Assembly (NCBI GenBank): GCA_945787525.1 | Contig: CALZJC010000012.1 | Location: forward strand, 1-21,992 | Origin: Thermoanaerobaculia bacterium | GTDB taxonomy: Bacteria > Acidobacteriota > Thermoanaerobaculia > Multivoradales > JAHEKO01 | Direction: 5' to 3' | Length of the DNA stretch: 21,992 bases | Part shown: positions 1 to 20,264 of the stretch, one piece after another | How the letters are laid out: every line of letters starts with the position of its first letter | How positions within the stretch are numbered: the first letter of the stretch is position 1 | Made by a program: the position numbers and the translations under genes | The notes under the pieces: generated by a model | Told to the model about the DNA's origin: nothing | The model's input: only the letters and a program-made list of their open reading frames with translations | Database searches by the model: none

Positions 1-4
1 CCGC

Positions 5-625
5 TCAGCACTCGATGTCGAAGATCGCGTCCACCAGCTTGGCGTCGCGATGCACGAAAGGCACCCCGAGCAGACGCGGCTTGCCGAACTCGATCTCGTA
101 GCGCAGCTGCTTCAGGGTGTCGGGCCTCTCCACCTCGCTGGCGATCAGCGCGTAGTGGGCCAGCTTCTTGGCGTCGCCCACGCCGTAGCGGCCACCCAGC
201 AGCCGCTCGCCCAGCTTCTCGCCGAGCTCGGGCAGCTTCTCGGTATAGCGGCGCACCAGGGTCGTCACCGCCGGCAGCGGCGCGTGGAAGGCCGGCACGG
301 CGAAGGTGCCCCGGCCGCCGGACGACTCCTGCTGGTCGCCGCCGAGAAAGAAGCTCATCAGGCCGCGAAAACCGCCGCCCGTGGCGTCGCGCTGGTGCAT
401 GGTGATCGTGGCCGGCAGCAGCCAGAACGGCCGGTAGAGCTCGACGGCGACGTTGGGCAGCGCCACGAAGGCGACCTCCATCGGCACCAGGCTCTTCTCG
501 GCGGCGGCGAACCGGTAGCCGTTGCGGCAGGCGGTGCAGTAGTAGACCACGTCCTCGCCGTCCGCCTTCACCGCCGCGCCGCAGCTCGGGCAGTCCAGCG
601 GCACCAGCTCGTAACCGGCCCTCAC
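5..625 (-). CDS. Zinc-ribbon protein, third paralog of the triad downstream of the SPFH gene (about 206 aa). Predicted start is GTG at 625..623, overlapping the upstream stop in a GTGA. N-terminal CPSCG…YYCTAC zinc ribbon; no obvious TM segment.
   Basis: The minus-strand frame ends …AIFDIEC* with a TGA at 7..5. The supplied 495-aa ORF is read-through. I chose the internal start because the upstream gene's TGA (624..622) overlaps GTG in the sequence GTGAGG. C-x2-C…C-x2-C motif and an ELYRPFWLL motif echoing PMWLFR/LPFYRV in the two upstream paralogs. Confidence 0.55.
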   Translation of the reverse strand: MRAGYELVPLDCPSCGAAVKADGEDVVYYCTACRNGYRFAAAEKSLVPMEVAFVALPNVAVELYRPFWLLPATITMHQRDATGGGFRGLMSFFLGGDQQESSGGRGTFAVPAFHAPLPAVTTLVRRYTEKLPELGEKLGERLLGGRYGVGDAKKLAHYALIASEVERPDTLKQLRYEIEFGKPRLLGVPFVHRDAKLVDAIFDIEC

Positions 626-1749
626 CCGTAGATCTCCGGTACCTTGCCGGCCATGAGCTCGCGCACCGCCTCCCGGCGGCGGCTTCTGCTGGCCAGGACC
701 CTGACCGCCTGGCCGAGGTTGACCTCCTTGTGCGCCCCGGTGCCCTCTATCACCACGCCGCCGTAGCGGAACTTGCGCCAGCCCCACCAGAGCGCCGCCA
801 GCAGCGGCAGCCCGACGAAAAGCAGCACCTCGAAGCTGGCCGCGATCTGCATCACGGTGGTGCCGACAAACAGCGCCGCCGCCTGGGTGAGCACCAGCAT
901 GGCGGCGCGAAAGAAGTCGTTGCCCGGCGCCTTGCCGTAGGCCAGCGAGCCGTCCTCGGCATCCACCAGCACCTGGTACGAGCGGTCCCTGAAGCGATAG
1001 CGCACGACCCACAACGGGTAGTAGATGACCGTCAGGCGCTCGCGCAGCGTCTGCAGGAACTTGAAGCGCACCGAGTGCAGACCGCTGGACGGGTCGGCCA
1101 AACGCCGGAACTGCTCGAGGGCCGCCTCGCGCACCTCGGTCTCGGAGCCGGTGGGTGGGAAGACCATGCCCAGCCGATCGAGAGCATCGCTGTCGAACGG
1201 CATTAGCCGATCGCCGCGCAGGTCGACCTTCTGGATGCCCCACTCGGCCACGTTCAGGGCCGGGTAGGTGCGATCGAAGATCTTCTCCGCCCGCCGCTCG
1301 ACGTCGACATAGTACGTGGTGGTGGTGCGGTTCTTGCCGCTGCCGGTAGTGCGCTGGCGCTTCTCGGTGCCGAGGGCAAAGCCGACGCAGTCCGCCTCGA
1401 CACGATAGAACGGCAGAAAGCTGAGGAACGCCTCGCCGATGCGCGCCGCGGTGCGCAGCTTGGGGTTCTTGACGATCCCCTTGGAGAGCCACTGGCGGGC
1501 GATCCCGCGGGCCTTCTCGGCGTCGATCTGGGGCTCGACGGCCAGCCGCCGGATGCCGACCTCACTGGTCGCCAGCAGCGGCGTCTCGCAGAACGGGCAC
1601 TCGACCACCCGCAGTCCGGCATCCACCTCGAGGGTGCCGCCGCAGTTGGGACAGGAGAGGCCGGTGACCCGCGAGGAGAGCCCGTCCTCGGCCACCGGCA
1701 CGATCTCCGGTGTGGGCTCGTCGGCGGCGTGCTCGAGCGGCTCGCTCAT
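622..1749 (-). CDS. Zinc-ribbon protein with C-terminal transmembrane helices, second paralog (about 375 aa). N-terminal CPNCGG…CPFC ribbon, about 150-aa central insertion, two C-terminal TM helices.
   Basis: ATG at 1749..1747 overlaps the upstream TGA (1748..1746) as ATGA. The supplied ORF start at 1767 is an in-frame upstream Met inside the previous gene. Shares EKARGIARQW…LPFYRV and PLWVVRYRFRDRSYQVLVDAEDG motifs with the 1746..2516 protein. Hydrophobic stretches FRAAMLVLTQAAALFVGTTVMQIA and VLLFVGLPLLAALWWGW. Confidence 0.65.
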   Translation of the reverse strand: MSEPLEHAADEPTPEIVPVAEDGLSSRVTGLSCPNCGGTLEVDAGLRVVECPFCETPLLATSEVGIRRLAVEPQIDAEKARGIARQWLSKGIVKNPKLRTAARIGEAFLSFLPFYRVEADCVGFALGTEKRQRTTGSGKNRTTTTYYVDVERRAEKIFDRTYPALNVAEWGIQKVDLRGDRLMPFDSDALDRLGMVFPPTGSETEVREAALEQFRRLADPSSGLHSVRFKFLQTLRERLTVIYYPLWVVRYRFRDRSYQVLVDAEDGSLAYGKAPGNDFFRAAMLVLTQAAALFVGTTVMQIAASFEVLLFVGLPLLAALWWGWRKFRYGGVVIEGTGAHKEVNLGQAVRVLASRSRRREAVRELMAGKVPEIYG

Positions 1750-2516
1750 ACTTTGCGCGTCACCCACCAGGCGAGGAACAGCAACGGCACCGCGGTGAGC
1801 CCGAAGACGAAGAGCTTGATCACCGGGTTGGTGAGGACAAAGCCCTCGATGGTAAACAGGATCAGTCCCAGGATCGCCACCAGAACATAGGGGCTCTCGG
1901 CCTTCTCGGGATAGACCGAGGCCATCACCGCGCCGGTCGAGCCGTCGACCAGCGCCTCGTAGTCACGTCCCTTGAAGCTGTAGCGGCAGCGCCACAGCGG
2001 TACCTGGACGAGCGCCGTCTCCTCGGGCTCACCCACGCCGCGCTGATCCAGCCAGCCCCGCGCGGTCTCTAGCGGGATGGTGGCGCCGAGCGCCTCCACC
2101 TCGCCGCTCTCGCCGGAGTACGGCTGCAGCTTGCCGGCCGGCACCTTGAGGTCGGCGAGCTGCGGGATCGGGGTCGGCGCCGCCGGCTCGACGTAGGTCT
2201 CCTCGCTGCCGCCCCGGCGGACCCGGAAGAGCCACATCGGGAAGGAGACCGCCCGCAGCGCGCCGAGCGAGCTCTTCTTGTCCAGATCCTTGACCGTTTC
2301 GTTGCCCGCCATCCAGCGCCGCAGCGCCGCTCGAGCCTCGTCGGCGCCGAGCAGCGGCGGCAACCGGTAGTGGTTGACCACCCCGCCGCGATCGACGAAC
2401 AGCGTCGCGTCGCAGTACTGACAGCGGAACAGCCGCCGGCCTGAGGCGAGTTGGTTCTCGCCGCCGCACTGGGTGCAGCGGATGACGTTGGCGGTGGCCG
2501 GGGACGGGCTGCTCAT
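1746..2516 (-). CDS. Zinc-ribbon protein with two C-terminal transmembrane helices, first paralog (256 aa). MSSPSPATANVIRCTQCGG…FRCQYCD.
   Basis: ATG at 2516..2514 preceded by AAGAG. The supplied 624-aa ORF fuses this gene to the SPFH gene through a stop-free intergenic stretch. C-x2-C…C-x2-C ribbon; EARAALRRWMAG…FPMWLFRV and PLWRCRYSFKGRDYEALVDGSTG motifs. C-terminal hydrophobic segments YVLVAILGLILFTIEGFVL and IKLFVFGLTAVPLLFLAWWV. Confidence 0.65.
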   Translation of the reverse strand: MSSPSPATANVIRCTQCGGENQLASGRRLFRCQYCDATLFVDRGGVVNHYRLPPLLGADEARAALRRWMAGNETVKDLDKKSSLGALRAVSFPMWLFRVRRGGSEETYVEPAAPTPIPQLADLKVPAGKLQPYSGESGEVEALGATIPLETARGWLDQRGVGEPEETALVQVPLWRCRYSFKGRDYEALVDGSTGAVMASVYPEKAESPYVLVAILGLILFTIEGFVLTNPVIKLFVFGLTAVPLLFLAWWVTRKV

Positions 2517-2526
2517 CTCTTGAACG

Positions 2527-2605
2527 GGGACAGGCAGCTCATTTCGGAGCGGCACGAAGCTCTCGCTCCTGGAGGACGGCCGTTGCGAAATGAGGTGCCT
2601 GTCCC
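2527..2605. repeat. Compound inverted repeat or RNA hairpin in the intergenic gap between the SPFH gene and the first zinc-ribbon gene. Twenty-bp arms with 1 mismatch, 39-nt spacer containing an inner GGAGCG/CGCTCC hairpin.
   Basis: Plus-strand 2527-2546 is gggacaggcagctcatttcg and 2586-2605 is cgaaatgaggtgcctgtccc, its reverse complement apart from one C/G. Inner repeat ggagcg (2546-2551) and cgctcc (2564-2569); CGGCCG palindrome at 2577-2582. No U-tract follows on the minus-strand mRNA. Confidence 0.6.
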
Positions 2606-2620
2606 TTGCGTGCGCGTGCG

Positions 2621-3551
2621 CTAGCCGGCGGCCTTGGTCCCGCAACCCGGGCAGAAGCGCGCCCCCTCGGGCAGCTTGTTGCCACACTGATGGCCCCGGG
2701 TCGCCCTGCATCGCCTCTTTCATCATCTGCGGCAGCATCATGCCCATGCCGGCGCCCATGCCGACCCCCAGCCCGGCGCCGACGCCGCTGCCGGTCTCAC
2801 CGCCCGACTGCTGCGCCGCGTCGCCCATCGCCCTGGCCGCCTTGAACTTGAGGTACTCGTTCATGTCGCCGACCGCCGCCATACCGGTGCGCTCGTCGAT
2901 CATCTTCTGGACCTCTTCCGGCGGCGTGATGGCGCCGAGGAAGAAATCCACCAGCTCGATGCCGTACTTGACAAAGTCGTCGCCGACCCTGGCCTTGAGG
3001 CCCATGCCGAGCTCGTCGTAGACCTTGGGCAGCTCGAAGATCGAGCTCAGGTTCTCGCCCAGGAGATCGGTCAGCCGGGCCACGATGACGTCCTTGAAAT
3101 AGCCCTCGACGCCGTCGGTGGTGTAGAGCCCCTGGGTGCCGACCACCGTATTGACGAACAGCTGCGGGTTGTCGATGCGCACGGCGAACTTGCCGAAGGC
3201 GCGCAGCCGCACCATGGCCAGCTCCTTGTCGCGGTAGACGACCGGCTCCTTGGTGCCCCACTTGAGGTCGATGAAGGTCTTGCTGGAGGTGAACACCACC
3301 GCCGCCTGGAAAGGCGACTTGCCCTTGAACGGCAGGCCCAGGACCTTGGTCAGAAACGGCAGGTTCTGGGTGGCCAGGGTGTGGCGCCCCGGACCGAAGG
3401 TGTCGAGCGCTTTGCCGTCGCGGAAAAAGACCGCCTGCTGGCTCTCCTCCACGACCAGCTGGCTGCCGAGCTGGATCGCCTTGGTGCCCTGCGACGGCCA
3501 CCGCGCCACCATGGTCTGTCCGGTGGGGTCGACGTACTGGATGACTTCCAT
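2621..3551 (-). CDS. SPFH/Band-7 domain protein of the YdjI/COG4260 type, with a glycine/methionine-rich linker and a C-terminal zinc-ribbon tail. The coding sequence is interrupted by an apparent +1 frameshift near 2690-2700.
   Basis: ATG at 3551..3549 with a strong purine-rich RBS (GAGAGGGGAAAGAAAC). N-terminus MEVIQYVDPTGQTMVARWPSQG…GSQLVVEESQQAVFFRDGKALDTFGPGRHTLATQNLPFL matches the conserved SPFH/COG4260 core. GSGVGAGLGVGMGAGMGMM linker. In the SPFH frame there is no stop until 1746. One nucleotide further on, the frame reads QCGNKLPEGARFCPGCGTKAAG* with a TAG at 2623..2621. Confidence 0.8.
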
Positions 3552-3568
3552 GTTTCTTTCCCCTCTCT

Positions 3569-4096
3569 TCAGCCGTCGGTCTTGACGACGCCGCTGATGA
3601 CGTTCTTGCGCTCGGCCCACTTGTCGCCGAGAGTCGAGATGTGTGCCAGTGCCTGATTGCAGGCCTCCTGGGCGTCGCCCTGGCCGGGCAGCGGGATGGC
3701 GGCGACGTCGCCGGCCAGCCGCGCGATGTCCTCGACCAGCGACAGGTCGAACTGGTAGATCGCGTCGAGCTCGGGCTCGTTGATCTTGACCACGTCGAAG
3801 AAACCGCTCTGGCCGTAGTCGGCAAAACGGATCGCCTGCGACAGGCCGTCGAGGCGCCCGTCCATGCGGCCGAACAGGTAGAGGGCGCCGATCTGCCCGG
3901 CGTCGGTGTAGGCCTGCGCCTTACCCCGAACGGCCTTCTTGATCTGCCCCAGCTCCTTGGCCAGGTGCTCGCGCTGCAGCTTGTCCACCTCGCGCCGCAG
4001 CTCGCGGTCCTGGAAGCCCCGGAAGCCCGGGATCTTGTCCATCAGGCGCTCGAGCCAGTTGCGCCGCTCTTGCGCCTCTTCGAATCCTGTCGTCAT
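3569..4096 (-). CDS. Hypothetical protein, 175 aa; charged and helical N-terminal half (coiled-coil-like). First gene of the SPFH operon.
   Basis: ATG at 4096..4094 with GGAGGA 6 nt upstream. Its stop (3571..3569) lies 17 nt before the SPFH start. I recognise no family; the sequence is MTTGFEEAQERRNWLERLMDKIPGFRGFQDRELRREVDKLQREHLAKELGQIKKA…. Confidence 0.6.
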   Translation of the reverse strand: MTTGFEEAQERRNWLERLMDKIPGFRGFQDRELRREVDKLQREHLAKELGQIKKAVRGKAQAYTDAGQIGALYLFGRMDGRLDGLSQAIRFADYGQSGFFDVVKINEPELDAIYQFDLSLVEDIARLAGDVAAIPLPGQGDAQEACNQALAHISTLGDKWAERKNVISGVVKTDG

Positions 4097-4181
4097 TCGT
4101 AGTCCTCCTGCCGGGGCTCTCTACGGCGATGGAGCCGGCGTTATTCGCATCGAGGCCCGGATCGGCCGAAGACCGAAGATA
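4097..4181 (-). promoter_or_regulatory. Intergenic region between the VanZ-like gene and the SPFH operon. It is the presumed promoter/operator of the SPFH operon and contains a tandem heptamer CCGAAGA x2 (4166-4179) abutting a GATATC palindrome.
   Basis: An 85-nt non-coding gap sits upstream of a gene with a strong SD. The direct repeat ccgaaga ccgaaga is visible on the plus strand. I could not identify a convincing sigma70 -35/-10 pair. Confidence 0.25.
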
Positions 4182-4754
4182 TCACCCGGCGGCGGCCCGA
4201 TCGGCGCGCCGGGCCTCGGCCAGGGCGGCCAGGGCGCCGACGGCCATGACCGCCGCCAGCACATTGAGCCACACGTCGACCCGGTCGTAGTACCGGTTGG
4301 GCAGCAGGTACTGGATGCCCTCGTCGATCCAGCCGGCGAGACCGCTCACCAGGACGGCCAGCAGCCCTGGAAGCGCCGACCAGCGCATGCCGGCGCCGGG
4401 CCGGCGGCGCTCCAGCAGCGCGGCGTAGACCAGTCCGGCGAGCAGACCGTACTCGAGCAGATGAAAGCGCTCCTCGGGCATCCTGATCGGCCACAGGACC
4501 CCCAGATAGAGCACCCCGAACAGCGCCAGAACGGCGATCTCGCGCCGTCCCGGTGAGCGCGCCAGGCACCAGCGCAGGACGACCGCCGCCACCACCAGGA
4601 AAAGGGCGCCGATCGAGACGCGCAGCAGGCCGTGGTCGCGCAGCCAATTGGCCAGCGGACGGACCGAGTACAGCGACGCGTAGATCGCCGCGAGCAGACC
4701 GCCGGCCCCGAACCAGAGCCGGCGTTCGCGAGCGGATCGGACCGGCAGGGACAT
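4182..4754 (-). CDS. VanZ-like family integral membrane protein (190 aa).
   Basis: Four or five hydrophobic helices. C-terminal motif GWIDEGIQYLLPNRYYDRVDVWLNVLA matches the VanZ-family E-x2-Q…P-x-R…D…N signature. Confidence 0.6.
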   Translation of the reverse strand: MSLPVRSARERRLWFGAGGLLAAIYASLYSVRPLANWLRDHGLLRVSIGALFLVVAAVVLRWCLARSPGRREIAVLALFGVLYLGVLWPIRMPEERFHLLEYGLLAGLVYAALLERRRPGAGMRWSALPGLLAVLVSGLAGWIDEGIQYLLPNRYYDRVDVWLNVLAAVMAVGALAALAEARRADRAAAG

Positions 4755-4819
4755 CGGCCCCGAGTCTACCTGCGAGGGACCTCTGTCGCCGCCGCTGCCC
4801 CGCTACAATCGTGCTCGCC
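4755..4819. promoter_or_regulatory. Divergent promoter region between the VanZ-like gene (minus) and the DUF354 gene (plus). TACAAT -10-like hexamer at 4804-4809, only 2-11 nt before the candidate GTG starts, which suggests a leaderless mRNA.
   Basis: Plus-strand cgcTACAATcgtgctcgccGTGcgg. There is no SD before either GTG (4811 or 4820). A TAGACT -10-like hexamer lies on the minus strand just upstream of the VanZ-like ATG. Confidence 0.25.
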
Positions 4820-5857
4820 GTGCGGCTGCTGCTCGACATCACCCACCCGGCCCACCTGCACTTCTTCCGCCACCTGGTGACGAGGATGCGGCGGGAGGGA
4901 CACGAGGTCTATCTGGCCGGGCGGCACAAGGACGTCCTGCTCGAGCTGGCGGCCGGCTACGGCCTCGTGCTCGACGCCTTCGGCCGCGCCCGGCCGGGGC
5001 TGTTCAGCCTGGGTCGCGAGATGGTGGCGCGCCAGACGCGTCTCGTGCGCATCATTCGCCGCTTCCGGCCGCACGCCATGATGGCCGTCGCCGGCACCTT
5101 CATCGCTCTGCCGGGCTGGTTGAAGCGCATCCCGACCTACGTCTTCTACGACAGCGAGCACGCCACCGTCTCCAACCTGCTGTCCTACCCGTTCGCCACC
5201 TGCGTCTACGTGCCGCGCTGCTATCTGGGGTCGATCCGCTGGCGGCACGAGCGCTACGACGGCTACCAGGAGCTGGCCTATCTCCACCCGGACCGGTTCA
5301 CTCCCGACCCGTCGGTGCTGGCCGAGGCCGGCCTGGCGCCGGGCGAGCCGTTCACCCTGGTGCGCTTCGTCGCCTGGGCGGCCGGCCACGACATCGGCAA
5401 GGCAGGGCTCGGCCTGGAGCAGAAAGTAGACGCGGTGCGCCGGCTCGGTCGCCACGGGCGGGTCGTCATCTCGACCGAGGGCGAGCTGCCGGACGAGCTC
5501 GAGTCGATGCGGCTGCGGCTCGAGGTGACGCGGATCCACCACCTCATGGCCCACGCCGCGCTCGTCTTCGGCGAGGGGGCGACCATGATGTCCGAGGCGG
5601 CGGTCCTCGGCGTGCCCAGCGTCTATGTCAACCCGCTGACCGCCGGAACCCTGGAGGAGCAGGAGCGGCAATACGGAATTCTGTTCGGCTTCCGGCCGGA
5701 CGACTTCGAGGCGGCCGTGGTCAAGGCGGAGTCGATCCTCGCCGCTCCCGCTGCCGAGCGCTGGCGCGCCATCGGGCGACGCATCGCCGACGAGAAGATC
5801 GACGTCACCGAGCTGCTCTACCGGGTCGCCACCGAGCGACCCTACGCCCGGGCATGA
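4820..5857 (+). CDS. DUF354 family protein (predicted GT-B/epimerase-like fold, glycosyltransferase-associated), about 345 aa.
   Basis: N-terminal VRLLLDITHPAHLHFFRHLVTRMRREGHEVYLAGRHKD matches the DUF354 hallmark DITHP.H..FF…GHEV. The start is GTG at 4820 (or 4811); the supplied ORF start at 4553 lies antisense inside the VanZ-like gene. Stop TGA at 5855-5857. Confidence 0.6.
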   Translation: MRLLLDITHPAHLHFFRHLVTRMRREGHEVYLAGRHKDVLLELAAGYGLVLDAFGRARPGLFSLGREMVARQTRLVRIIRRFRPHAMMAVAGTFIALPGWLKRIPTYVFYDSEHATVSNLLSYPFATCVYVPRCYLGSIRWRHERYDGYQELAYLHPDRFTPDPSVLAEAGLAPGEPFTLVRFVAWAAGHDIGKAGLGLEQKVDAVRRLGRHGRVVISTEGELPDELESMRLRLEVTRIHHLMAHAALVFGEGATMMSEAAVLGVPSVYVNPLTAGTLEEQERQYGILFGFRPDDFEAAVVKAESILAAPAAERWRAIGRRIADEKIDVTELLYRVATERPYARA

Positions 5858-5899
5858 AGGTCGGCCGGCGGTGGCCCGAGCGAGCTGCCGACGGTCAAG
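5858..5899. terminator. Convergent intergenic region between the DUF354 gene (plus) and the GT gene (minus), with a weak 8-bp stem (1 mismatch) at 5860-5867 and 5885-5892. A possible bidirectional terminator with no U/A tract.
   Basis: The stem is gtcggccg … ctgccgac; there is also a direct repeat gacggtc x2 at 5890-5896 and 5904-5910. Confidence 0.2.
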
Positions 5900-7052
5900 C
5901 TAGGACGGTCGGGCGACGCTTGCGCCCAGCAGCTTCTCGTAGAGGGCAAGCCACGAGCCGATGACGTGCTCCCAGCCCGACAGCCGCCAGATGACTTCGG
6001 CGTTGCGGCGGCTCGCGGCCCGATGCTCGTCCAGACGCTCGAGCACCGAGATGAGCGTCGCGCCGAGCGACCCGATGTCGTCCACCCTGACCAGGTAGGC
6101 ACCGCGCTCCTCCAGCACCCTGTACGGGAGCCAGCGGCCGGCGATCACGATGCTGCCGGCGAAGAGATGCTCCTGCATCGCGCCGGAGAGCGCATCGCTC
6201 TTGTGCACGTTGATCATCACGTCGGCGGCCAGCCGCAGGCGAGCCAGGTCGGCGTCGCTCAGCGGCTGCTCGAAGAGCCGGTACGCCAGTCGTGAGCCGG
6301 TCAGGGCATGCCTGACCCGAGCCCGCGTGTCGGACCAGCCGTAGGTCAGCGGAAAGACAAAGACACACTCGGGAGGCAGGCGTGCTTCGACGCTATGGAG
6401 AGCGTCGAGGATCTTGTCGTGCTGCACGACCGGTGAAGCACTGTGGCCACAGACCACGATCCGCGCCTCGCTGGGCAGGTCCAGCGCGCGCCGCCACTGG
6501 CGCCTCGATTCCGCCTCGCGAAGCCGGCGCACCTCCTCCAGAATGGACAGGCCGAAACGGCACAGATGGATCTTCTCCTCCGGGGTGTCGGGATAGACGC
6601 GCAGGAAATCGTCGCGCACCTCGGGGTTGGAAAAGGTCAGCGCGTCGGCAGCTCGAAACAGCCCCTGCTTGAAGGTCCTTTCGAGGCGCCCGGCCTGGTG
6701 GAGATCGCTGCCCCAGATGCTCACTGCCAGCCTCTTCGCCAGCCTGCGGATGAGCGGCAGGTAGGGTCGATAGTAGGCGCCGGCAAAGTGCAGGTGGGCG
6801 ATCTCGTAACGGCCCGGGATCTCGAGGAGGGTGAGCGGCGCGCGCAGCCGCTTGTAGCCGAGGTGGAGCCCCGAAAGCTGGCTCAGGAAGCGGTCGAGAC
6901 GCGAGGACCGAAGAAGCTCGCGCCCGTCATCGGTCTCGAGGGAGCGGTCAAAGAGGTAGAGGCGGTCCAAAGCGACGCCCTGCCGCCGCAGGCGGGCGGC
7001 CAGCGAATCGATCAGGAAGCTCTGCTGGGACCGGATCAGCAGGACTCGCAAG
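5900..7052 (-). CDS. Glycosyltransferase-like protein, GT-B fold (GT4-like), about 383 aa.
   Basis: The likely start is TTG at 7052..7050 (LRVLLIRSQ…), with a GGGGG RBS, 15 nt after the upstream stop. The supplied ORF start at 7156 is S/T-rich read-through overlapping the upstream gene. The C-terminal half has an E-x7-G-like nucleotide-sugar binding region: ADVMINVHKSDALSGAMQEHLFAGSIVIAG. Confidence 0.5.
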
Positions 7053-7067
7053 GCGCCCCCGGGGCGA

Positions 7068-7766
7068 TCACTCGATGAAGCGCTCCTGATAGGCCCGCTG
7101 AGCCTGCTCGTAGTCCTCCACGACTCCGATGTCGAGCCAGTACTCGCGGAGGACATATTTGGTGACGGGCATCCCGTTTTGGAGCATCTCCTGGATGAGA
7201 CGGTCGATTCCGTAGTAGGTATTGTCCGGGATGAGCTCGAAGACGGCGGGCTTCAGCACATAGATGCCCGCGAGAACCTCGAAGTTGAAGTCCGGCTTCT
7301 CTTCGACGCCGGTGACGTAGATGCCGTCCGATTCGATGTTGCCGAAGCGAAAGGGCGTCGTGAGCACCTTGGTGGCGATGGTCAGCCGGGAGTCCGGCAG
7401 TCCGGCGGCGAACGCGTAGATCTTGCTCAGGTCCGCCTCGGTCAGGATGTCGCCGTTCATGAGGATGAACGGCTCCGTGAGCCGCTCCTTGATCAGACTG
7501 AGAGGGCCGCATGTTCCCAGCGGCTCGCTCTCGACGCTGTAGTTCAAAACCACGCCGTACCTGCTGCCATCACCGAAATAGGAACGAACGTAGTCCGCCT
7601 TGTAGTTGAGCGCCAGGAAGATCTCGTCGAACCCGTGCTCCCGCAGCAGGCCGATCTGGATCTCCAGGAGCGCCTTCTCACCCAGCGGCAACATCGGTTT
7701 GGGAATGATGGCGGTCAACGGGCGGAGCCGGACTCCGAGCCCACCGGCCAGGACCACGGCCTTCAT
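7068..7766 (-). CDS. Sugar-1-phosphate nucleotidyltransferase (NTP_transferase family), 232 aa.
   Basis: N-terminal MKAVVLAGGLGVRLRPLTAIIPKPMLPLG matches the canonical G-G-x-G-x-R-L-x-P-L-T…PKPM pyrophosphorylase signature. ATG at 7766 overlaps the upstream TGA as ATGA. Confidence 0.8.
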   Translation of the reverse strand: MKAVVLAGGLGVRLRPLTAIIPKPMLPLGEKALLEIQIGLLREHGFDEIFLALNYKADYVRSYFGDGSRYGVVLNYSVESEPLGTCGPLSLIKERLTEPFILMNGDILTEADLSKIYAFAAGLPDSRLTIATKVLTTPFRFGNIESDGIYVTGVEEKPDFNFEVLAGIYVLKPAVFELIPDNTYYGIDRLIQEMLQNGMPVTKYVLREYWLDIGVVEDYEQAQRAYQERFIE

Positions 7767-8386
7767 GACGACTCGCCCCGGAAGACCCCGGACTCGGTCA
7801 CGCTGCAGCGCACGACGCTGCCCGCGCTGACCAGCACTCCGGAGGTCAATGAGACCCCATGGAACAGTGCCGCGCCACAGCCGACGAACACCTCGTCGCC
7901 GAGCCGGCAGCTTCCGTTGACCACCGCGCCGGTGGCCACGTGGCAGTGGTCACCGACGACGGCATCGTGCTCGACGGTTGCGCCGGTGTTGATGATGCAG
8001 TTGGCACCGACCCGGGCGGACGCGTTGACGGTGGCATGATGCATGACGATTGTGCCAGCTCCGAGATCTGCGTGGCGCGAGACGTGGGCTCGCGGCGACA
8101 CGATCGCCGGGAAGCCCCCTCCGAGCGCGACCACCCGCTCGAACAGTTCGCGGCGGCGGGCGGCCGTCCTCACCTGGCCGATGGTGATCAGGAAGTTGCT
8201 GTAGCGAGTCGACAGGCTCGGATAGTCGTCGTCGGTTGCGACCACCGGGTAGCCGAGGACCTCCTGCCCCAACATCTCGCGCCTGTCGACGACCCCGGCG
8301 ATCCGGTATTCCCCGGCCTCCTCGATCACATCGACGCACGCCCGGCAATGCCCGCCACCGCCGATGAGGATCAGCTCCGCAGTCAC
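7763..8386 (-). CDS. NeuD/PglD-family sugar acetyltransferase (left-handed beta-helix, hexapeptide repeat), 207 aa.
   Basis: N-terminal Rossmann-like ILIGGGGHCRACVDVI, then hexapeptide repeats (GAGTIVMHHATVNASARVGANCIINTGATVEHDAVVGDHCHVATGAVVNGSCRLGDEVFVGCGA). GTG start at 8386 with a GGTAGGA RBS. Confidence 0.8.
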   Translation of the reverse strand: MTAELILIGGGGHCRACVDVIEEAGEYRIAGVVDRREMLGQEVLGYPVVATDDDYPSLSTRYSNFLITIGQVRTAARRRELFERVVALGGGFPAIVSPRAHVSRHADLGAGTIVMHHATVNASARVGANCIINTGATVEHDAVVGDHCHVATGAVVNGSCRLGDEVFVGCGAALFHGVSLTSGVLVSAGSVVRCSVTESGVFRGESS

Positions 8387-8509
8387 AGTCCTACCCCGCT
8401 GGGGATGTTGATGGGGCGATCCACGACATTCTGAAACAGAGCGCTTGTCATTTCTGCACCGTGGGGCGACCTACGATACCTTGAGTCCGGCCATGGTCTC
8501 CTGCGGATC

Positions 8510-8552
8510 AGCGCGTCTGACTCTCGGCCGGTCCAACGCGCTCACCTGGCGC
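8510..8552 (-). terminator. GC-rich hairpin (7-bp stem AGCGCGT/ACGCGCT, 19-nt loop with a CGGCCG palindrome) immediately 3' of the last gene of the dcw transcript. Candidate terminator or stabiliser; no U-tract.
   Basis: Plus-strand agcgcgt at 8510-8516 pairs with acgcgct at 8546-8552. The stop codon of the 8542..9531 gene lies within or adjacent to the right arm. Confidence 0.25.
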
Positions 8553-9531
8553 CACGGTCGCGGCTGCGGAGCCGACGATCGCCCAGCAGCCCGACGCCTC
8601 CGAACGGCAGTGCCAGGGCTACCATCACGATGAAGTGGGCCACCCGCAGCAGGCCCGACAACAGTATCGCCTCGCCCACCGTCACACCCAGCTCCGGGCC
8701 CAGCAGCCCGAAGAGCAGCTCGCGCACACCGACGTTACCCGGCGTCACGACGAGGTAGTTGCTGATCTGCAGCACGGCATAGAGAACCAGGACCGCGGCC
8801 AGCCCGACCTGAGCCCCGAGCGCCAGAAAGGCGAGGCTGAAGCTCGTGCAGGAGACCGCCACGCTGACCAGCCCGAGACCCAGCACAGCCGCGCCATAGC
8901 GCAGGTCGGCAAAGCTGCGCACCGCCACCTCCAGGACCCGCGCCAGACGATCGTGCACCCAGGCGAGGCGGCGTTGGCGCAGCCACCCGGCGCGCGCTAC
9001 CCAATCGAGCACGACCGGCACGGCAGCCAGGGTCACTGCCGAGGTCGCCACCGCTGCCGCGGCCGGTAGCCCGCCGAGGCGCATGCCGGGGCGCAGCAGC
9101 CAGATCGTGATCCCTGCCAGCAGGAGATTGACCGTGGTGCCAACCCAGGCGAAGGCGACAAACGAACCGAGGTAGTCCGAGTAAGCGATGCCGTGGACGG
9201 CCTTCAGCTGCACCCCCCGATAGACGTTTCCGAGCTGCGGCACCAGGGTGCTGAGGAACCTGCCGAGCACAAACAGCCGCAGCCAGGGCAGGAAACCGAT
9301 CCGCTGCCCCGAGGCCTTTTCGAGGATCACCTGATAGCGCAGGCTGTCGAGCGCGAAGTAGCCCAGCTGTAGCAGCAGCAGCCCGACCGCGTGCAGCGGC
9401 CGGATCTCGAGCAACACCTCGAGCTCTGCCGGATTGCGTGCGAAGAAGCGGACGATCCAGGCCAGGCATACTGCCAGCACCAGCCAGGACAGGCCGCTCT
9501 TGAGCCTCTTGGGCAGCGGGCGTTCGGTCAA
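8542..9531 (-). CDS. Polytopic membrane protein (about 8 TM), candidate flippase-like LPG-synthase-TM/UPF0104 family member. Translationally coupled to ftsZ.
   Basis: 329 aa with eight hydrophobic helices and a conserved-looking [17 protein letters not shown] (P-x-G-x-G-x-x-E) motif near the C-terminus. ATG 9531..9529 overlaps the ftsZ TGA 9530..9528 as ATGA. Confidence 0.55.
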
Positions 9532-10826
9532 TCCATCTGCTTGCGGAGCACGGTCGGGATGTCGAAGTCGTCGACGTTGGACCAGTTTGGACCGTAGCCG
9601 TTGGGATCCTCGTTCTGGGTCTGGGCGATCACCTTGCGATAGAAGGGGATCTCCTCGGGCTCCTCGGTGATCGGCTCGACTTGCGGCGCGGCCGGCGCCC
9701 CCGGCCGCGCGGGCTCGGCGGTCTGGAACGGCTCCGGCTCGAGGGCGGGCGCCGGCTGCTGACGGGGAGTGAAGAACGGCTCATCCTCCATCGCCGCCCT
9801 GGCCTCGGCTGCCGCCGGCTGCCCAGCCGGCTGTTTGAAGCCGGTGGCGATCACCGTCACCTTCATCTCCTCTTCCAGATCCTCGTCGATAACCATGCCG
9901 GAGATGATGTTGGCAACCGGGTCTACGGCCTCGGCGATCACCTGGGCCGCCTCGGCCACTTCGTGCAGGGTCAGGTCGGCGCCGCCAGAGATATTGATCA
10001 ACACGCCCTTGGCGCCGACAATCGAGGTCTCCTCCAGCAGCGGCGAGGAGATCGCCCGCTGCGCCGCCTCCTGGGCGCGACTCTCGCCCTTGGCGACGCC
10101 GGTGCCCATCAGCGCCATGCCCATGCCGGTCATGATCGACTTGACGTCGGCGAAGTCGACGTTGACCTCGCCCGGCACGGTGATCAGGTCGCTGATGCCC
10201 TGTACCGCCTGACGCAGCACGTCATCGGCGATGCGGAAGGCCTCGCTCAGAGGTGTACCCCGCTCGACGAAGTTGAGCAGGCGCTCGTTGGGGATGGTGA
10301 TCAACGTGTCGACCGCCCCGCGCAGCTCTTCGAGCCCCCGCTCCGCGAGCTCCATGCGGCGGCGGCCCTCGAAGACGAACGGCTTGGTCACCACCGCCAC
10401 GGTGAGAGCGCCAATCTCGGCCGCCAGGGAGGCGATGATCGGCGCCGCACCGGTGCCGGTGCCGCCGCCGAGTCCGGCGGTGAGAAAGACCATGTCCGCC
10501 CCCTGAAGCAGCTCGAGCATGCGCTCGGTGTCCTCGAGAGCCGACTTGCGGCCGACCTCCGGGTCGCCGCCGGCTCCCAGCCCGCGGGTCAGGGCCTGGC
10601 CAAGCTGTTGCTTGGTGCCGGCGCGGCACTTGCGCAGCGCCTGCAGGTCGGTGTTGGCGGCCACGAACTCGATGCCCCGCATGCGGGCGTCGATCATCCG
10701 GTTGACCGCGTTGCCGCCGCCGCCGCCGATGCCGATCACCTTGATCTTCGCCGGCAGCATGTCGGCCGTGTCGTCGAGCGTGATCGGGAGTTTGCTCTCC
10801 GCTTCGTGGTCTTCGAAAAGAATCAT
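9528..10826 (-). CDS. ftsZ: Cell division protein FtsZ (432 aa).
   Basis: [13 protein letters not shown] tubulin signature, T7 loop region, about 100-aa P/A/E-rich linker and a C-terminal [11 protein letters not shown] peptide. ATG with a GGGGGAA RBS. Confidence 0.97.
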
Positions 10827-10851
10827 TCTTGATTCCCCCAGGTTGCCGCCA

Positions 10852-12090
10852 TTACAGCAGATCCGACAGCCGCTCGCGCAGATTGCCCATCATTCCACGC
10901 ATGCTGAAGCCATGGCGAACGTTTGATTTCTTGCGTAGCGACTGGGCCGACTGCCCATACAGCAGGAGGCCGGACGCGGCACTCCAGGTCGGGCATCGGA
11001 TGACGTCCACCAGACCGCCCAGTCCCTGCGGCAGTCCGTAGCGGACGCCGGTGTTGAACACCTGCTCGGTGAGCTCGAGCAGCCCGTCGAGCTGGGCGCC
11101 GCCGCCGGTCAGCACGACGCCACCGCGCAGCGACTCTTCGTAACCGTTGATCTCCAGCTCGCGGCGCACCAGCTCGAGCAGCTCGTGGGCGCGCGGCTGG
11201 AGGATGTCGCACAGCTGACGCTTGGGAATCACCCGCGCCGGGCCGCCAGCCACCGTCGGCACCGAGATGCCCTCGTCCTCGCCGAGCATGCCGGCCAGGC
11301 AGCAGCCATAGCGCAGCTTGATCCGTTCCGCCTCGGCGAAGGGCGTCCGCAGCACCATGCCGACGTCGCTGGTGAAATGGCCGGCGCCGATCGGCAGCAC
11401 GCCGCTGTGCATGACCTCGCCGTCGCTGTAGAAGGCGAACTCGCTGGTGCCGCCACCGATGTCGAGCAGCAGCGATCCGAGCTCGCGCTCGTCATGGGTC
11501 AGGACCGCCTCGGCGGTGGCCAGCGGCTCGAACACCGCCTCCAGCACCTCCACGCCGGCCCGATTGACGCAGGTCAGCAGGGTCCGCCGCCGCGTGGTGT
11601 TGGCGGTCACCAGATGCACCGCCACTTCCAGCCGGTGACCCAGCATGCCCAGTGGCTCGACGATGCCGCCCTGCTCGTCGACGACGAACTCCTGCGGGAT
11701 GGCGTGCAGGATCTCGCGATCCGACGGCAGCGCCGCCGCCTGGGCCGCCTCGAGCACGCGATCGATGTCCTGACGGGTGATCTCGTGCGTATTGCGCGCC
11801 ACCGAGACCATGCCCCGCGAGTTGACGCTTCGCACATCGGTGCCGGCGACGCCGACGTAGGCGCGCGAGATCTCGGTGCCGGCCATTACCTCGGCCTCTT
11901 CGGTCGCCCGTCGCAGGGCGTCGACGGCGGCGTCGATGTTGACGATATTGCCCTTGCGAGTGCCGCGGTTCGACGCCCGACCCTTGCCGACGATCTCGAG
12001 CTCGCCGTTGTCTTGCGGTTTGGCGATCAGCACCGCCACCTTCGAGGAGCCGATGTCGATCGCAACCAGGTTTGGGTCCGGTTTGGCCAT
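10852..12090 (-). CDS. ftsA: Cell division protein FtsA (412 aa).
   Basis: Actin-like ATPase motifs ([29 protein letters not shown]) and a C-terminal amphipathic membrane-targeting helix ([15 protein letters not shown]). Confidence 0.95.
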
Positions 12091-12096
12091 TTTCTT

Positions 12097-12906
12097 CTAC
12101 CCTTCCTCTAGACGCGGCGCCGACGTGGGCACCGCCACGATTCTGCCGCTGAATCTCAGATCAAGTGCCGCCGCCGGCATCAGGCGATGCCGTACCTCGG
12201 GCAGGTAACGGCGCAGACGGCGGAGGCCCGCCTCGACGCCGCCGACGCCCAAGACCAGGGCAAACGGCAACGCGGCGGTGTGAAACCGCAGATCGTCCTC
12301 TCCCAGCACCTCGACTTCGGACAGCTGCCGGCCCCACTCGGGCTCCAGGCGGACGAAGTCCGCCGCTGCGTCCAACGCCGGACCGAGTCGCGACTCGCCA
12401 CCGGAGGAGAGGCGGACCAGCATCAGATCAGCCGGCCCGGCGCCCGGGTCGTAGCGGTCGATCAGACGGCCGGCCCGGTCGATGTAGTGCATTCCATCGG
12501 CGCGACGCAGCAGCGCCGCCGGGCGGCGTTCGACCACCCTCACGGCCAGCGTATCGGGCAGCCGCTTGCGCATCGCCAGGCCCGCGATCCACGGGTGGCC
12601 GGCCAACTCGCCTTCGAGGTCGGCGAGCGACAGCCGCAGGAGGTGGCGCCCGCGCAGCGGCGCGATCTGCTCACCGATCCACTCCCGCGGCACCCGCTCG
12701 GTGCCGGACAGCTCGAGGGTCCGCAGATGGAAACGCGGCGAAGTCAGTACCCAGACGGCCGCCCCGACCGGAACCGCAACGACCACCGTGGCGAAGGCGA
12801 ACTGCCGCAGCAGCCTCAGCGGCAGGCTGCGTCGCCGGCGCGGCGCGGTGAAGCGGCGGCGGCGCAGGCCGCTCGGCACTTCGCTCTTCTCCACCGCCGA
12901 CGTCAC
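12097..12906 (-). CDS. ftsQ: Cell division protein FtsQ/DivIB (about 269 aa).
   Basis: GTG start at 12906 overlaps the murC TGA as GTGA, with GGAGG 5 nt upstream. Arg-rich cytoplasmic tail, single TM (FAFATVVVAVPVGAAVWVL), then a POTRA-like region. Sits between murC and ftsA. Confidence 0.85.
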   Translation of the reverse strand: MTSAVEKSEVPSGLRRRRFTAPRRRRSLPLRLLRQFAFATVVVAVPVGAAVWVLTSPRFHLRTLELSGTERVPREWIGEQIAPLRGRHLLRLSLADLEGELAGHPWIAGLAMRKRLPDTLAVRVVERRPAALLRRADGMHYIDRAGRLIDRYDPGAGPADLMLVRLSSGGESRLGPALDAAADFVRLEPEWGRQLSEVEVLGEDDLRFHTAALPFALVLGVGGVEAGLRRLRRYLPEVRHRLMPAAALDLRFSGRIVAVPTSAPRLEEG

Positions 12907-14291
12907 TCCGCCTCCTGACGGACCAGCCGCTCGGCCAGCCGGTAGATGTCGCCCGCGCCCATGGTCAACACCACGTCGCCGGGGCGCACCCGCTCGGCAA
13001 GCCGCTGCGGAACCTGCCGCCAATCGCTGCACAGCGCCACGCTGCGGTGGCCGCTACGGGTCGCCGCCTCGACGATCATCTCGGCGTCCACGCCCGGCAA
13101 CGGCGCCTCGCGCGAGGCGTAGATGCCGGTCACCACCGCCTCGTCGGCACCCAGCAGGGCGCGGCCGAACTCCTCGGCGAGGTCGCGGGTGCGGCTGTAG
13201 AGGTGGGGCTGGAAGATCGCCAGCAGCCTGGCCTTGGGAAAGACCTGACGGGCGGCGCGCAGCGTGGCCGCCACCTCGGTCGGGTGGTGGGCGTAGTCGT
13301 CGACCACCGCCGCACCGCGCCAGTCGCCGAGCCGCTCGAACCGCCGGTGGACACCGGAGAAGTCGCTCAGCGCCGCGGCGATGGTGGGCAGATCGAGGCC
13401 CACGGCCCGCCCCACCGCCACCGCCGCCAGGGCGTTCAACACGTTGTGCTCACCCGGCATCGGCAGCCGCAGCTCGCCCAGCGGCTCGCCACCCTCGCCC
13501 TCGATGGCGAAGCGAGTGCCGCCATCTTCCGTCCGCAGGTCGACCGCGGTGAGATCGGCCTGTGGCGACAGGCCGTAGGTCACCAGTCGATGCTCGGCCA
13601 GATCGGGCAGCACGCTCTGGATGTTCTCGTCGTCGAGGCAGAGCACGATCTGGCCGAAGAACGGCACCTTGCCGGCGAAGTCGACAAAGGCGGCGCGAAT
13701 CTCGTCGAGGTCCAGGTAGGTGTCGAGATGGTCGCTGTCGATGGAGGTGACCACGGCGATTATCGGCTGCAGGCGAAGGAAGCTCCGATCGTACTCGTCG
13801 GCCTCGGCCACCAGGTAGTCGCTGCGTCCGAGCCGGGCGCCGGTGCCCGAGACCCGCAGCCGCCCGCCGACCAGGACCGTCGGATCCAGCCCCGCCTCGG
13901 TCAGCACCGCGCCGATGAGCGACGTCGTGGTGGTCTTGCCATGCGTGCCGGCGATGGCGATGCCGTACTTCAGCCGCATCAACTCGCCGAGCATCTCCGC
14001 CCGCCGCACCACCGTGATGTTGCGCTCGCGGGCCGCCACCAGCTCGGGGTTGTCGTCGGCCACCGCCGACGACTTGACCACCAGGTCGACGTCCTCGAGA
14101 TGGTCGGCCGAATGCCCCTCGAAGACCTCGACCCCGAGGCGCTCGAGCCGCTCGGTGACCGGGCCCAGAGCCAGGTCGCAGCCGGTCACCTCGAGGTCGT
14201 AGTCGGTGAGCACCTCGGCGATACCGCTCATGCCGGCGCCGCCGATACCGACGAAGTGGATCCGCCGCAGGTTGGCGAAACGGCGAAACAT
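12903..14291 (-). CDS. murC: UDP-N-acetylmuramate--L-alanine ligase MurC (462 aa).
   Basis: MFRRFANLRRIHFVGIGGAGMSGIAEVL…GTHGKTTTTS Mur-ligase motifs. ATG 14291 overlaps the murG TGA by 1 nt. The supplied 790-aa ORF is a fusion of murC with a stop-free frame upstream. Confidence 0.95.
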   Translation of the reverse strand: MFRRFANLRRIHFVGIGGAGMSGIAEVLTDYDLEVTGCDLALGPVTERLERLGVEVFEGHSADHLEDVDLVVKSSAVADDNPELVAARERNITVVRRAEMLGELMRLKYGIAIAGTHGKTTTTSLIGAVLTEAGLDPTVLVGGRLRVSGTGARLGRSDYLVAEADEYDRSFLRLQPIIAVVTSIDSDHLDTYLDLDEIRAAFVDFAGKVPFFGQIVLCLDDENIQSVLPDLAEHRLVTYGLSPQADLTAVDLRTEDGGTRFAIEGEGGEPLGELRLPMPGEHNVLNALAAVAVGRAVGLDLPTIAAALSDFSGVHRRFERLGDWRGAAVVDDYAHHPTEVAATLRAARQVFPKARLLAIFQPHLYSRTRDLAEEFGRALLGADEAVVTGIYASREAPLPGVDAEMIVEAATRSGHRSVALCSDWRQVPQRLAERVRPGDVVLTMGAGDIYRLAERLVRQEAE

Positions 14292-15373
14292 CAGGCCACG
14301 ACCTCCTCGACGAGATCGGCCACCGCGGCGGCAGCCGCCGGCCGCGCCAGGTCGCGCAACGCCCGCCCCATGGCCCGCAGCCTCTCTCCGTCCGCCAGCA
14401 GCTCGGCCAGGGCGGCGGCGCAGCCGTCCGGGTCGCTCTCCTCCGACCGCAGGACCCGGGCGCCGCCGGCCGCTTCCAGCCGCGCCGCGTTGTCCGCCTG
14501 ATGGCCGCCGGCAAAGCCGTACGGGATAAGCAGCGCCGGCCGGCCGGAGGCGCTGATCTCGGCCAGGGTGATGGCCCCGGCCCGCGAGATGACCAGGTCG
14601 ACGTCGGCCAGCGCGGCGGCGACATCCTCGACAAAGGGCACCAGCTCGACCTCGAGACCGTCGCCGCTCAGGGCCGCCCACGCCTGGCGCGCCGGCTCCA
14701 GGTGGGCAGTGCCGGTCTGGTGGCGGACCGTCAGCTCCATGCCGCCGGCCGCCAACGCGGCGATCGCCGGCGGCACGATCCGGTTGAGCTCGAGGGCTCC
14801 CTGGCTGCCGCCCAGGACCAGAACGCGGCGGCGGGCCGCCGGAGCGATCTCCGCCATGCCGACGAAGCCTCGGCGGATCGGCACCCCGGTCACCCGCGCC
14901 GGGCAGACCAGCCGTGCGGCGGTCTCCTGCCAGGCCACCGCGGCCGTGACGGCGAGGCGCGACAGCAGGCGGTTGGCGGCGCCGGGCACTGCGTTGGGCT
15001 CGAGCAGTACCGTCGGCAGACCGGCCAGCCGGCCGCCGATGACGGCCGGAGCCGCGACATAGCCGCCCGTACCGAGCACCGCGCGGCCGTGCTCGCGCCG
15101 CAACAGCCGCCGGGCGGCGAGCGCCGAGCGACCCAGCACGGCGACGGCGGCCAGCCGCGCACCGATGCCATGACCGACCAACGGCCGCGCCGCCAGAGCG
15201 CGGTAGGGCATGCCGCGCGCCGTCACGATCTGGCGTTCCATGCCCTCGGGACGACCGATCCAGGTCACTCGCCACCCCCTCGCCGCCATCTCCTCCGCCA
15301 CGGCCAGACCGGGGAAGACGTGGCCGCCGCTGCCACCGCCAGAGATGAACAGATGAGGCTTCTCACTCGACAC
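14291..15373 (-). CDS. murG: UDP-GlcNAc:undecaprenyl-PP-MurNAc-pentapeptide GlcNAc transferase MurG (360 aa).
   Basis: N-terminal FISGGGSGGHVFPGLAVAEE (MurG G-loop); GTG start at 15373. Confidence 0.93.
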   Translation of the reverse strand: MSSEKPHLFISGGGSGGHVFPGLAVAEEMAARGWRVTWIGRPEGMERQIVTARGMPYRALAARPLVGHGIGARLAAVAVLGRSALAARRLLRREHGRAVLGTGGYVAAPAVIGGRLAGLPTVLLEPNAVPGAANRLLSRLAVTAAVAWQETAARLVCPARVTGVPIRRGFVGMAEIAPAARRRVLVLGGSQGALELNRIVPPAIAALAAGGMELTVRHQTGTAHLEPARQAWAALSGDGLEVELVPFVEDVAAALADVDLVISRAGAITLAEISASGRPALLIPYGFAGGHQADNAARLEAAGGARVLRSEESDPDGCAAALAELLADGERLRAMGRALRDLARPAAAAAVADLVEEVVA

Positions 15374-15377
15374 CCGA

Positions 15378-20251: not shown

Positions 20252-20264
20252 GACCCTCGCCGCC

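Follow-up and report, generated by a model that had tools for sequence, protein, structure and literature searches.

We analyzed a stretch of 21,992 nucleotides (nt) from a Thermoanaerobaculia bacterium (Acidobacteriota), corresponding to positions 1 to 21,992 of contig CALZJC010000012.1 in assembly GCA_945787525.1 and referred to below as the window. Positions 5-4096 are filled by five consecutive genes, all on the minus strand, designated here A to E. They encode, in the order of transcription, a small helical protein (A), a protein with an SPFH domain (B) and three proteins that start with a zinc ribbon (C, D and E, also labeled ZnR1, ZnR2 and ZnR3). An earlier note on this DNA, made from the sequence alone, had likened the cluster to the pspA-ydjGHI locus of Bacillus subtilis, and the comparisons described below show that the likeness is one of real homology, carried by B with YdjI and by C and D with YdjG. 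The reference sequences of YdjI, YdjG, YdjH and PspA were taken from a pspA-ydjGHI locus on a metagenome contig, which was located by a DNA pattern search with the published ydjG primer.

Proteins encoded by the five genes

The product of gene B is a soluble SPFH protein of the YdjI/SamI type. The Pfam Band_7_1 model (PF13421) matches residues 17-225 (E = 1.6e-56; score 191.8 bits, cutoff 24), and the general Band_7 model (PF01145) also matches, with E = 6.9e-13. The alignment with YdjI of B. subtilis is full-length (BLASTP, E = 1e-22; hhalign, 99.6%, E = 6.5e-25, 284 columns), and both proteins present the same order of Band_7_1 domain, Gly/Met linker and C-terminal ribbon, in agreement with the COG4260/YdjI type to which B had been assigned before any search was run. 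No transmembrane segment was found in B, where no 19-residue window reaches a Kyte-Doolittle value of 1.6.

Proteins C, D and E each begin with one CxxC...CxxC ribbon of their own, as had been noticed earlier. The further claim that the three are paralogs, and the ribbon partner thus triplicated, stands for two of them: C and D are full-length paralogs (BLASTP, 5e-11; hhalign, 98.8%, E = 4e-17), whereas E matches them over the ribbon only, some 30 residues, so that the gene is duplicated and E is a different protein. Comparison with YdjG of B. subtilis gave an equivalent picture. C aligned with it at 97.3% (hhalign, E = 2.3e-11, 192 columns) and D at 82-85% (E of about 1e-05, about 240 columns), the homology extending from the ribbon to the C-terminal strands that bear a P-x-W...Y-x-Y/F...G motif, whereas about 26-35 ribbon columns of E align and nothing further. 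Membrane hairpins are likewise confined to C and D, which are the two ribbon proteins said earlier to end in transmembrane helices; A, B and E have no hydrophobic helices. In C, the N-terminal ribbon and a central alpha/beta domain are followed by two hydrophobic helices within residues 205-253, and in D two such helices lie within residues 282-324, ahead of a cytoplasmic tail of about 50 amino acids (aa). C and D are proteins of the YdjG type: the C-terminal hairpin anchors them in the membrane, and their ribbon and alpha/beta domain are cytoplasmic. Because it has no C-terminal hydrophobic helices, E falls outside the YdjG/SamG type, and it was ruled out both as a third YdjG paralog, hhalign aligning the ribbon only, and as a substitute for YdjH (hhalign, at most 0.3%). 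No significant match to E was found in Pfam, NCBIfam, PADLOC or the sequences of the PDB. For D, 512 homologs were found, none of them with a Pfam domain, and profiles of A, D and E gave nothing meaningful against all PDB chains.

Protein A, which leads the module, was modeled as five long helices (predicted local distance difference test, pLDDT, 78.8), and the structural neighbors of the model were generic helical bundles only, none of them informative. The possibility that A is a disguised PspA/ESCRT-III protein was rejected on sequence, as its profile aligned with B. subtilis PspA at 0.2% (hhalign), in keeping with the earlier description of an unrelated helical protein, and the modeled fold lends this possibility no support. 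No significant Pfam match and no strongly amphipathic N-terminal helix were found in A. The absence of PspA from the module, also proposed earlier, was borne out by Pfam and hhalign, neither of which detected a PspA homolog. Similarly, none of the proteins A to E matched the TPM_phosphatase domain of YdjH (PF04536), which YdjH itself matches with 3e-23, and A, C, D and E reached 0.3% or less when aligned with YdjH by hhalign.

A profile search gathered 1,503 clusters at 50% identity in the family of protein A, 894 of them at E <= 1e-10, and this family has no known function. A is distantly related to NCBIfam NF047596 (the LIMLP_15305 family), a 175-position profile that matched residues 10-143 of A with E = 1.4e-08. 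As the score was 34.8 bits against a cutoff of 210, A is not a member of that equivalog family, but a related member of the superfamily, and NF047596 and the 1,503 clusters are probably parts of one superfamily. The NF047596 proteins come from Leptospira, have no assigned function and are of the same length class as A; a literature search for LIMLP_15305 returned a mere table entry, in which it appears as the neighbor of a small RNA (PMC7567364). Certain proteins of the A family, 243-256 aa long, carry a zinc ribbon fused to their N-terminus (P0427, P0445, P0449, P0477, and L090 at 6001-6768), and in locus L090 there is no SPFH gene beside the fused gene.

The positions of these genes and of the features between them are presented in Table 1. 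On re-reading, the five minus-strand genes, their two overlaps and the two spacers described earlier were all found in place. The start codon of D overlaps the stop codon of C in an ATGA (1749-1746), and that of E overlaps the stop codon of D in a GTGA (625-622). A consensus scan found no sigma-70-type promoter, although such a scan says little for this phylum.

Table 1. Features of the five-gene locus and its upstream flank, listed in the direction of transcription
Feature	Positions	Strand	Basis or remarks
VanZ-like membrane protein, 190 aa	4182..4754	-	Pfam VanZ, E = 4.6e-06, under the gathering score; directly upstream of A
Gap from VanZ-like gene to A, 85 nt	4097..4181	-	AGGAGG (Shine-Dalgarno-like) 7 nt ahead of the ATG of A
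Gene A, 175 aa, soluble, all-helical	3569..4096	-	Open reading frame; constant partner of the SPFH gene
A-B spacer, 17 nt, purine-rich, AGAGAGGGGAAAGAAAC	3552..3568	-	Sequence read
Gene B, intact part: SPFH domain (Band_7_1) and beginning of the Gly/Met-rich linker	2695..3551	-	
Junction of the 137-bp deletion in B	2694..2695	-	Comparison with near-identical contig L001
Residual C-terminal zinc ribbon of B, ...HQCGNKLPEGARFCPGCGTKAAG followed by TAG	2621..2694	-	+1 frame relative to SPFH
RNA hairpin between cistrons, B-C gap	2527..2605	-	Folding
Gene C (ZnR1), 256 aa, YdjG/SamG-like	1746..2516	-	hhalign against YdjG
Gene D (ZnR2), 375 aa, paralog of C, YdjG-like	622..1749	-	hhalign
Gene E (ZnR3), 206 aa, soluble; ribbon and a conserved domain without family match	5..625	-	

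The deletion in gene B and the hairpin that follows it

In the window, the SPFH frame of gene B has no stop of its own and runs on into ZnR1, producing a single open reading frame (3620..1746, 624 aa), and the ribbon tail (CGNKLPEGARFCPGCGTKAAG followed by a stop) is found in the +1 frame relative to SPFH, with its first Cys pair gone. The earlier description of SPFH domain, linker and ribbon as one protein had silently joined these two frames. Comparison with contig L001 (GCA_945787085.1), which is 99.9% identical to the window (11 substitutions in 9.8 kb), revealed 137 additional bases in L001 at the position 2695|2694 of the window. The L001 version of B is intact and 355 aa long, with the SPFH domain, the Gly/Met linker, an Ala/Pro linker and an FCHQCG...FCPGCG ribbon. 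The deletion therefore shifts the frame and removes the Ala/Pro-rich linker together with the first Cys-x2-Cys of the ribbon. When the frames were spliced by hand, the remnant matched Pfam Zn_Ribbon_1 (E = 1.7e-06) over profile positions 4-22 of 23. The layout of a low-complexity linker followed by an in-frame CxxC...CxxC ribbon, broken in the window, is intact in L001 and in 35 orthologous loci.

The lesion is either an assembly error or a strain-level change. The missing segment is 81% G+C, no microhomology was found at the deletion ends, and this G+C-rich linker region may be prone to assembly errors or to genuine indels. If the 137-bp deletion is real, the module would be crippled in the organism sampled, and B would either be frameshifted and end without its tail or be joined by accident to ZnR1 in a fusion protein of about 600 aa. 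A crippled module is possible, but we do not consider it the probable explanation. The lesion is visible in the sequence of the window itself, and its clean ends, within surroundings 99.9% identical to L001, fit a strain variant as well as they fit an error. On the other hand, all five flanking genes are intact and obviously constrained, and all other complete orthologs keep a ribbon or SHOCT tail except those on two contigs from metagenome-assembled genomes (MAGs), L016 and L034. An assembly problem in the low-complexity linker is plausible because these two MAG contigs are also lesioned in the SPFH gene, which suggests that assembly frequently fails there. In L016 the gene is truncated at 182 aa (about 8603-9950), and in L034 the C-terminus of the SPFH protein resembles a frameshifted SHOCT. 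In a further locus, L011, a gap of 952 nt precedes ZnR1 (2048-3007).

The hairpin that the earlier note had placed in the gap between B and C was confirmed by folding. Its arms, of 20 nt each (2586-2605 and 2527-2546), enclose a 39-nt loop, and it ends 10 nt ahead of the start codon of ZnR1. The 131-nt stretch that contains it folds with -58 kcal/mol (z = -3.4), a value not reached by any of 200 shuffled sequences. In the closest species (L005, about 9690-9770) the hairpin is kept with compensatory changes, ACAGGCACC/GCTGCCTGT against ACACGAACC/GGTTCGTGT; it is not conserved in more distant loci, whose B-C gaps measure between -25 and 952 nt. No T-run is found 3' of the hairpin, and a scan for intrinsic terminators found terminator-like sites to be no commoner than expected by chance. 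As no match was obtained in an Rfam scan of positions 1-4900 at E <= 1, the hairpin does not belong to a known RNA family. That its arm might be a dispersed repeat was discarded, since it occurs a single time in the window. The hairpin may be an element of transcript processing or stability.

Conservation and genomic position of the module

Homologs of A were searched in one genome per species, which yielded 146 positive genomes, and the labels of the best 80 were read: all are Acidobacteriota except for one Polyangiaceae and one "uncultured bacterium". ZnR2 and A have hundreds of close homologs each, nearly all of them in metagenome bins of Thermoanaerobaculia/Acidobacteriota. The order of the five genes is kept in about 22 further species-level Thermoanaerobaculia genomes, at 49-95% protein identity; the earlier note had named lack of conservation as a ground for abandoning its proposal, and that ground fails, because the arrangement is kept well beyond this genome. 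In 21 related loci, the 4-nt overlap was present between C and D in 16 and between D and E in 15, and the A-B spacer measured 11-80 nt. The complete locus was also found in L020 (CAXMQZ010000105.1), with ftsA-ftsZ-VanZ upstream, in a bin named "uncultured Polyangiaceae", which is probably mis-binned or mislabeled since all other matches are acidobacterial. Downstream of the module, a MoxR-like AAA ATPase (AAA_3/AAA_5) and a protein of 663-668 aa without Pfam match are encoded in L002 (13747-16579) and L003 (9814-12653), the pair following the module directly in L003 and about 4 kb further on in L002.

Within this set, the most constant part of the module is the pair formed by A and B, as in all 84 acidobacterial loci the gene directly after A encodes a Band_7_1 SPFH protein. 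In most Thermoanaerobaculia this dyad is found without C-D-E, and a Ser/Thr kinase and an E1 dehydrogenase gene occupy their place in the remaining loci. The presence of C-D-E is limited to loci whose SPFH protein ends in a zinc ribbon (21 of 35 ribbon-tailed loci, compared to 0 of 23 with a SHOCT tail), and E is present only alongside C and D, in complete loci. The SHOCT tail, ...KLRQLKGLLDEGLISQEEFNAKRQKLL, replaces the ribbon in about half of the Thermoanaerobaculia loci (L024, L033, L036, L038-L040 and about 20 others).

Members of the A family were also found in Armatimonadota, Riflebacteria, Chloroflexi and Planctomycetota. Among six distant loci that were inspected, A is directly upstream of a Band_7_1 SPFH gene in four, one in each of these phyla, and one gene apart from it in one further genome, so that the two genes adjoin or lie one gene apart in five of the six; in the sixth, A is fused to a ribbon and has no SPFH gene next to it. 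The SPFH proteins of the four directly adjacent loci end in a ribbon, a double ribbon or a GYF domain; a GYF_2 tail was seen in the Riflebacteria ortholog and two ribbons in those of Chloroflexi and Planctomycetota. The genes 3' of the dyad in other phyla were ruled out as divergent forms of C, D, E, YdjG or YdjH, and because they are unrelated to these proteins, the unit conserved across phyla is the A-SPFH dyad, to which E and the YdjG-like pair were added in a lineage-specific manner. The row of genes in L091 (6001-10200) encodes A, a ribbon-DUF4097 protein (Toastrack-type), an SPFH-ribbon protein, a DUF2807 protein and a double-ribbon protein, next to a gas-vesicle cluster, and this locus links the dyad to a domain already associated with phage-shock-type systems. 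We give about even chances to a broader proposal, according to which A and a soluble Band_7_1 SPFH protein would form an ancient, undescribed two-protein membrane system present in at least five phyla. Here, A would be a dedicated client or effector in the place that PspA has in Firmicutes, and the SPFH protein would dock through an exchangeable tail module (ribbon, double ribbon, SHOCT or GYF). One lineage of Thermoanaerobaculia would have added the duplicated YdjG-like anchors and a new ribbon protein, with the unit placed behind ftsZ.

The module of the window is located at the distal end of a division and cell-wall (dcw) cluster and on the same strand, the cluster extending from murE to ftsZ (9528-21740, minus strand) and encoding Mur ligases, FtsW, FtsQ (POTRA), FtsA and FtsZ. 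Other five-gene loci are mostly found just downstream of ftsA-ftsZ, often with VanZ between; the module follows ftsZ directly or after VanZ in L003, L004, L007 and L010, and FtsZ is encoded at most 8 kb upstream in 12 of 17 loci with C-D-E, compared to 4 of 44 others, three of these four being contigs cut short. The VanZ-like gene precedes A in about 16 related loci. Its adjacency to the module, remarked on earlier, holds for the window and, beyond it, for a sub-clade only, the link to ftsA-ftsZ being stronger, and the gene is part of the context and no constant part of the module. Between ftsZ and VanZ, the window carries a block of about 5-5.4 kb (4553-9531) with glycan/lipid genes, which encode LPG_synthase_TM, a PglD-like acetyltransferase, an NTP_transferase, a 383-aa protein without Pfam match and, on the opposite strand, DUF354. 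As this block is absent from L003 and L004, where VanZ comes directly after ftsZ, it looks like an insertion of glycan/lipid-modification genes.

Such a location would also suit a divisome-associated scaffold, that is, an accessory of cell division or cell-wall synthesis expressed with or after the dcw genes, and not a stress system. The mislocalization of cell-wall (peptidoglycan) synthesis under stress upon loss of ydjG/ydjH in B. subtilis (PMC8581546) points the same way. We nevertheless judge this explanation unlikely, given that the dyad without C-D-E is so rarely near ftsZ, that in the window ftsZ and the module are 5.4 kb apart, with glycan/lipid genes between them of which one is on the opposite strand, and that neutral synteny can account for a place behind a conserved cluster.

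Proposed role and comparison with known systems

The reading that we favor, if by a modest degree, is that the locus is a Thermoanaerobaculia operon for a PspA-less variant of the YdjG/YdjI (SamG/SamI) membrane-associated SPFH system, with C and D docking the SPFH protein and A as its partner. The homologies, topology and conservation described above provide its grounds, and the interactions and physiological role are proposed by analogy with B. subtilis, where YdjI is soluble, its membrane foci require YdjG and YdjH, and PspA depends on YdjI (PMC8581546). Recruitment of the SPFH protein to the membrane, known for that species, would presumably fall here to C and D. Probably as a C-D-E complex with a fixed ratio set by the overlapping genes, they would tether the soluble SPFH oligomer to the inner membrane face; that the complex is stoichiometric is a reasonable inference from the conserved overlaps. 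Once docked, the oligomer would scaffold or sense the state of the membrane or envelope. A, and not PspA, would be the partner recruited or regulated by B, and it could be a client, a regulator or an effector. The whole complex may then monitor or organize the membrane in connection with envelope growth, its action on the envelope in growth and division being suggested by its usual position just after ftsA-ftsZ.

Several points weigh against this reading. Its mechanism derives wholly from analogy with one Firmicute system at 22-24% identity, and that system also needs YdjH and acts on PspA, both of which are absent here. The match between D and YdjG is moderate (82-85%), and, as most genomes carry the dyad without any YdjG-like gene, C and D are not its general membrane anchor. 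The role given to A is guesswork, because its fold is generic and its structural neighbors are uninformative. Finally, B is frameshifted in the window as given, and the locus counts are phylogenetically non-independent.

As a rule, SPFH proteins assemble into large oligomeric cages at membranes (cited in PMC11188069), and the match of B to Band_7 agrees with a cage of this kind that would control a client such as a membrane protease, on the pattern of HflK/C-FtsH or stomatin-NfeD, with the ribbon proteins as adaptors or substrates. We find this very unlikely for the present module: no protease, NfeD or FtsH gene is found in it or in its conserved flanks, HflK/C and stomatins typically have an N-terminal membrane anchor that is missing from B, and B scores a negligible 13 bits with the NCBIfam HflK model, whose cutoff is 159. 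An anti-phage or conflict system with an SPFH or zinc-ribbon sensor is scarcely credible, for although some conflict systems do contain SPFH domains and small ribbon proteins, no match between the 5,027 PADLOC 2.0 models and any of the five products was obtained (E <= 0.01), no effector-like enzymatic domain is present in the module, and its housekeeping position is stable and its sequence highly conserved across species. The divisome, protease-cage and defense explanations all have less support than a PspA-less YdjG/YdjI system.

The SPFH proteins of the YdjI/SamI type have so far been understood through one Bacillus operon, in which their role was read as bringing PspA to the membrane. Because a distant phylum retains the SPFH-anchor pair with neither PspA nor YdjH, this pair must have a PspA-independent role, in agreement with 2026 work in Bacillus, according to which the SamGHI part also acts independently of PspA and the developmental phenotype does not require PspA (bioRxiv 10.64898/2026.02.06.704340). 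The A family, with about 1,500 clusters and almost always beside this SPFH type, is a testable candidate partner for a widespread class of SPFH proteins, and the link of the module to the end of the division and cell-wall cluster points to a phenotype to look for.

The earlier note had held the configuration to be undescribed, and no description of it was found in the searchable literature; a search for COG4260 returned nothing. The retrieved passages of a survey of the phage-shock protein (PSP) network describe as sub-membrane assembly factors both Band-7 proteins with C-terminal ribbon or SHOCT tails and membrane partners that carry ribbons (Ravi et al. 2024, PMC11237479), a picture that fits the SHOCT-tailed orthologs of B and the Toastrack-type (DUF4097/DUF2807) neighbors in L091. 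The contexts given in those passages center on PspA, PspC or Toastrack. Band-7 proteins with a ribbon, and YdjG, are mentioned in the passages retrieved from the PSP-partner and ESCRT surveys (PMC11237479, PMC11188069), which contain neither the pairing of Band_7_1 with the A family nor the A-B-C-D-E operon. With the flotillins FloA/FloT and with HflK/C, B shares the SPFH fold and the likeness to membrane-associated oligomeric scaffolds; those proteins, however, insert by a helix or hairpin of their own and pair with NfeD or FtsH, whereas B has no hydrophobic segment and no such neighbor.

The closest known system is pspA-ydjGHI, renamed pspA-samGHI, which in Bacillus is regulated by sigma-W. 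Two of its four protein types are represented in the module by homology, with the genes in one operon in both cases: YdjI corresponds to B, a soluble Band_7_1 SPFH protein with a Gly/Met linker and a ribbon, and YdjG to C and D, which share with it the N-terminal ribbon, the alpha/beta domain with the PxW...Y.Y...G motif and the C-terminal anchor. Unlike pspA-ydjGHI, the module is devoid of PspA and of YdjH, with its TPM domain, and its YdjG-like gene is duplicated. YdjG has two ribbons and a single tail anchor, whereas C and D have one ribbon each and a two-helix hairpin. The order of the genes differs too, as the earlier note had observed, the SPFH gene being ahead of the anchors in the module and after them in pspA-ydjGHI. 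A and E are additions of the module without counterpart in B. subtilis, and the A-SPFH dyad is its newest element.

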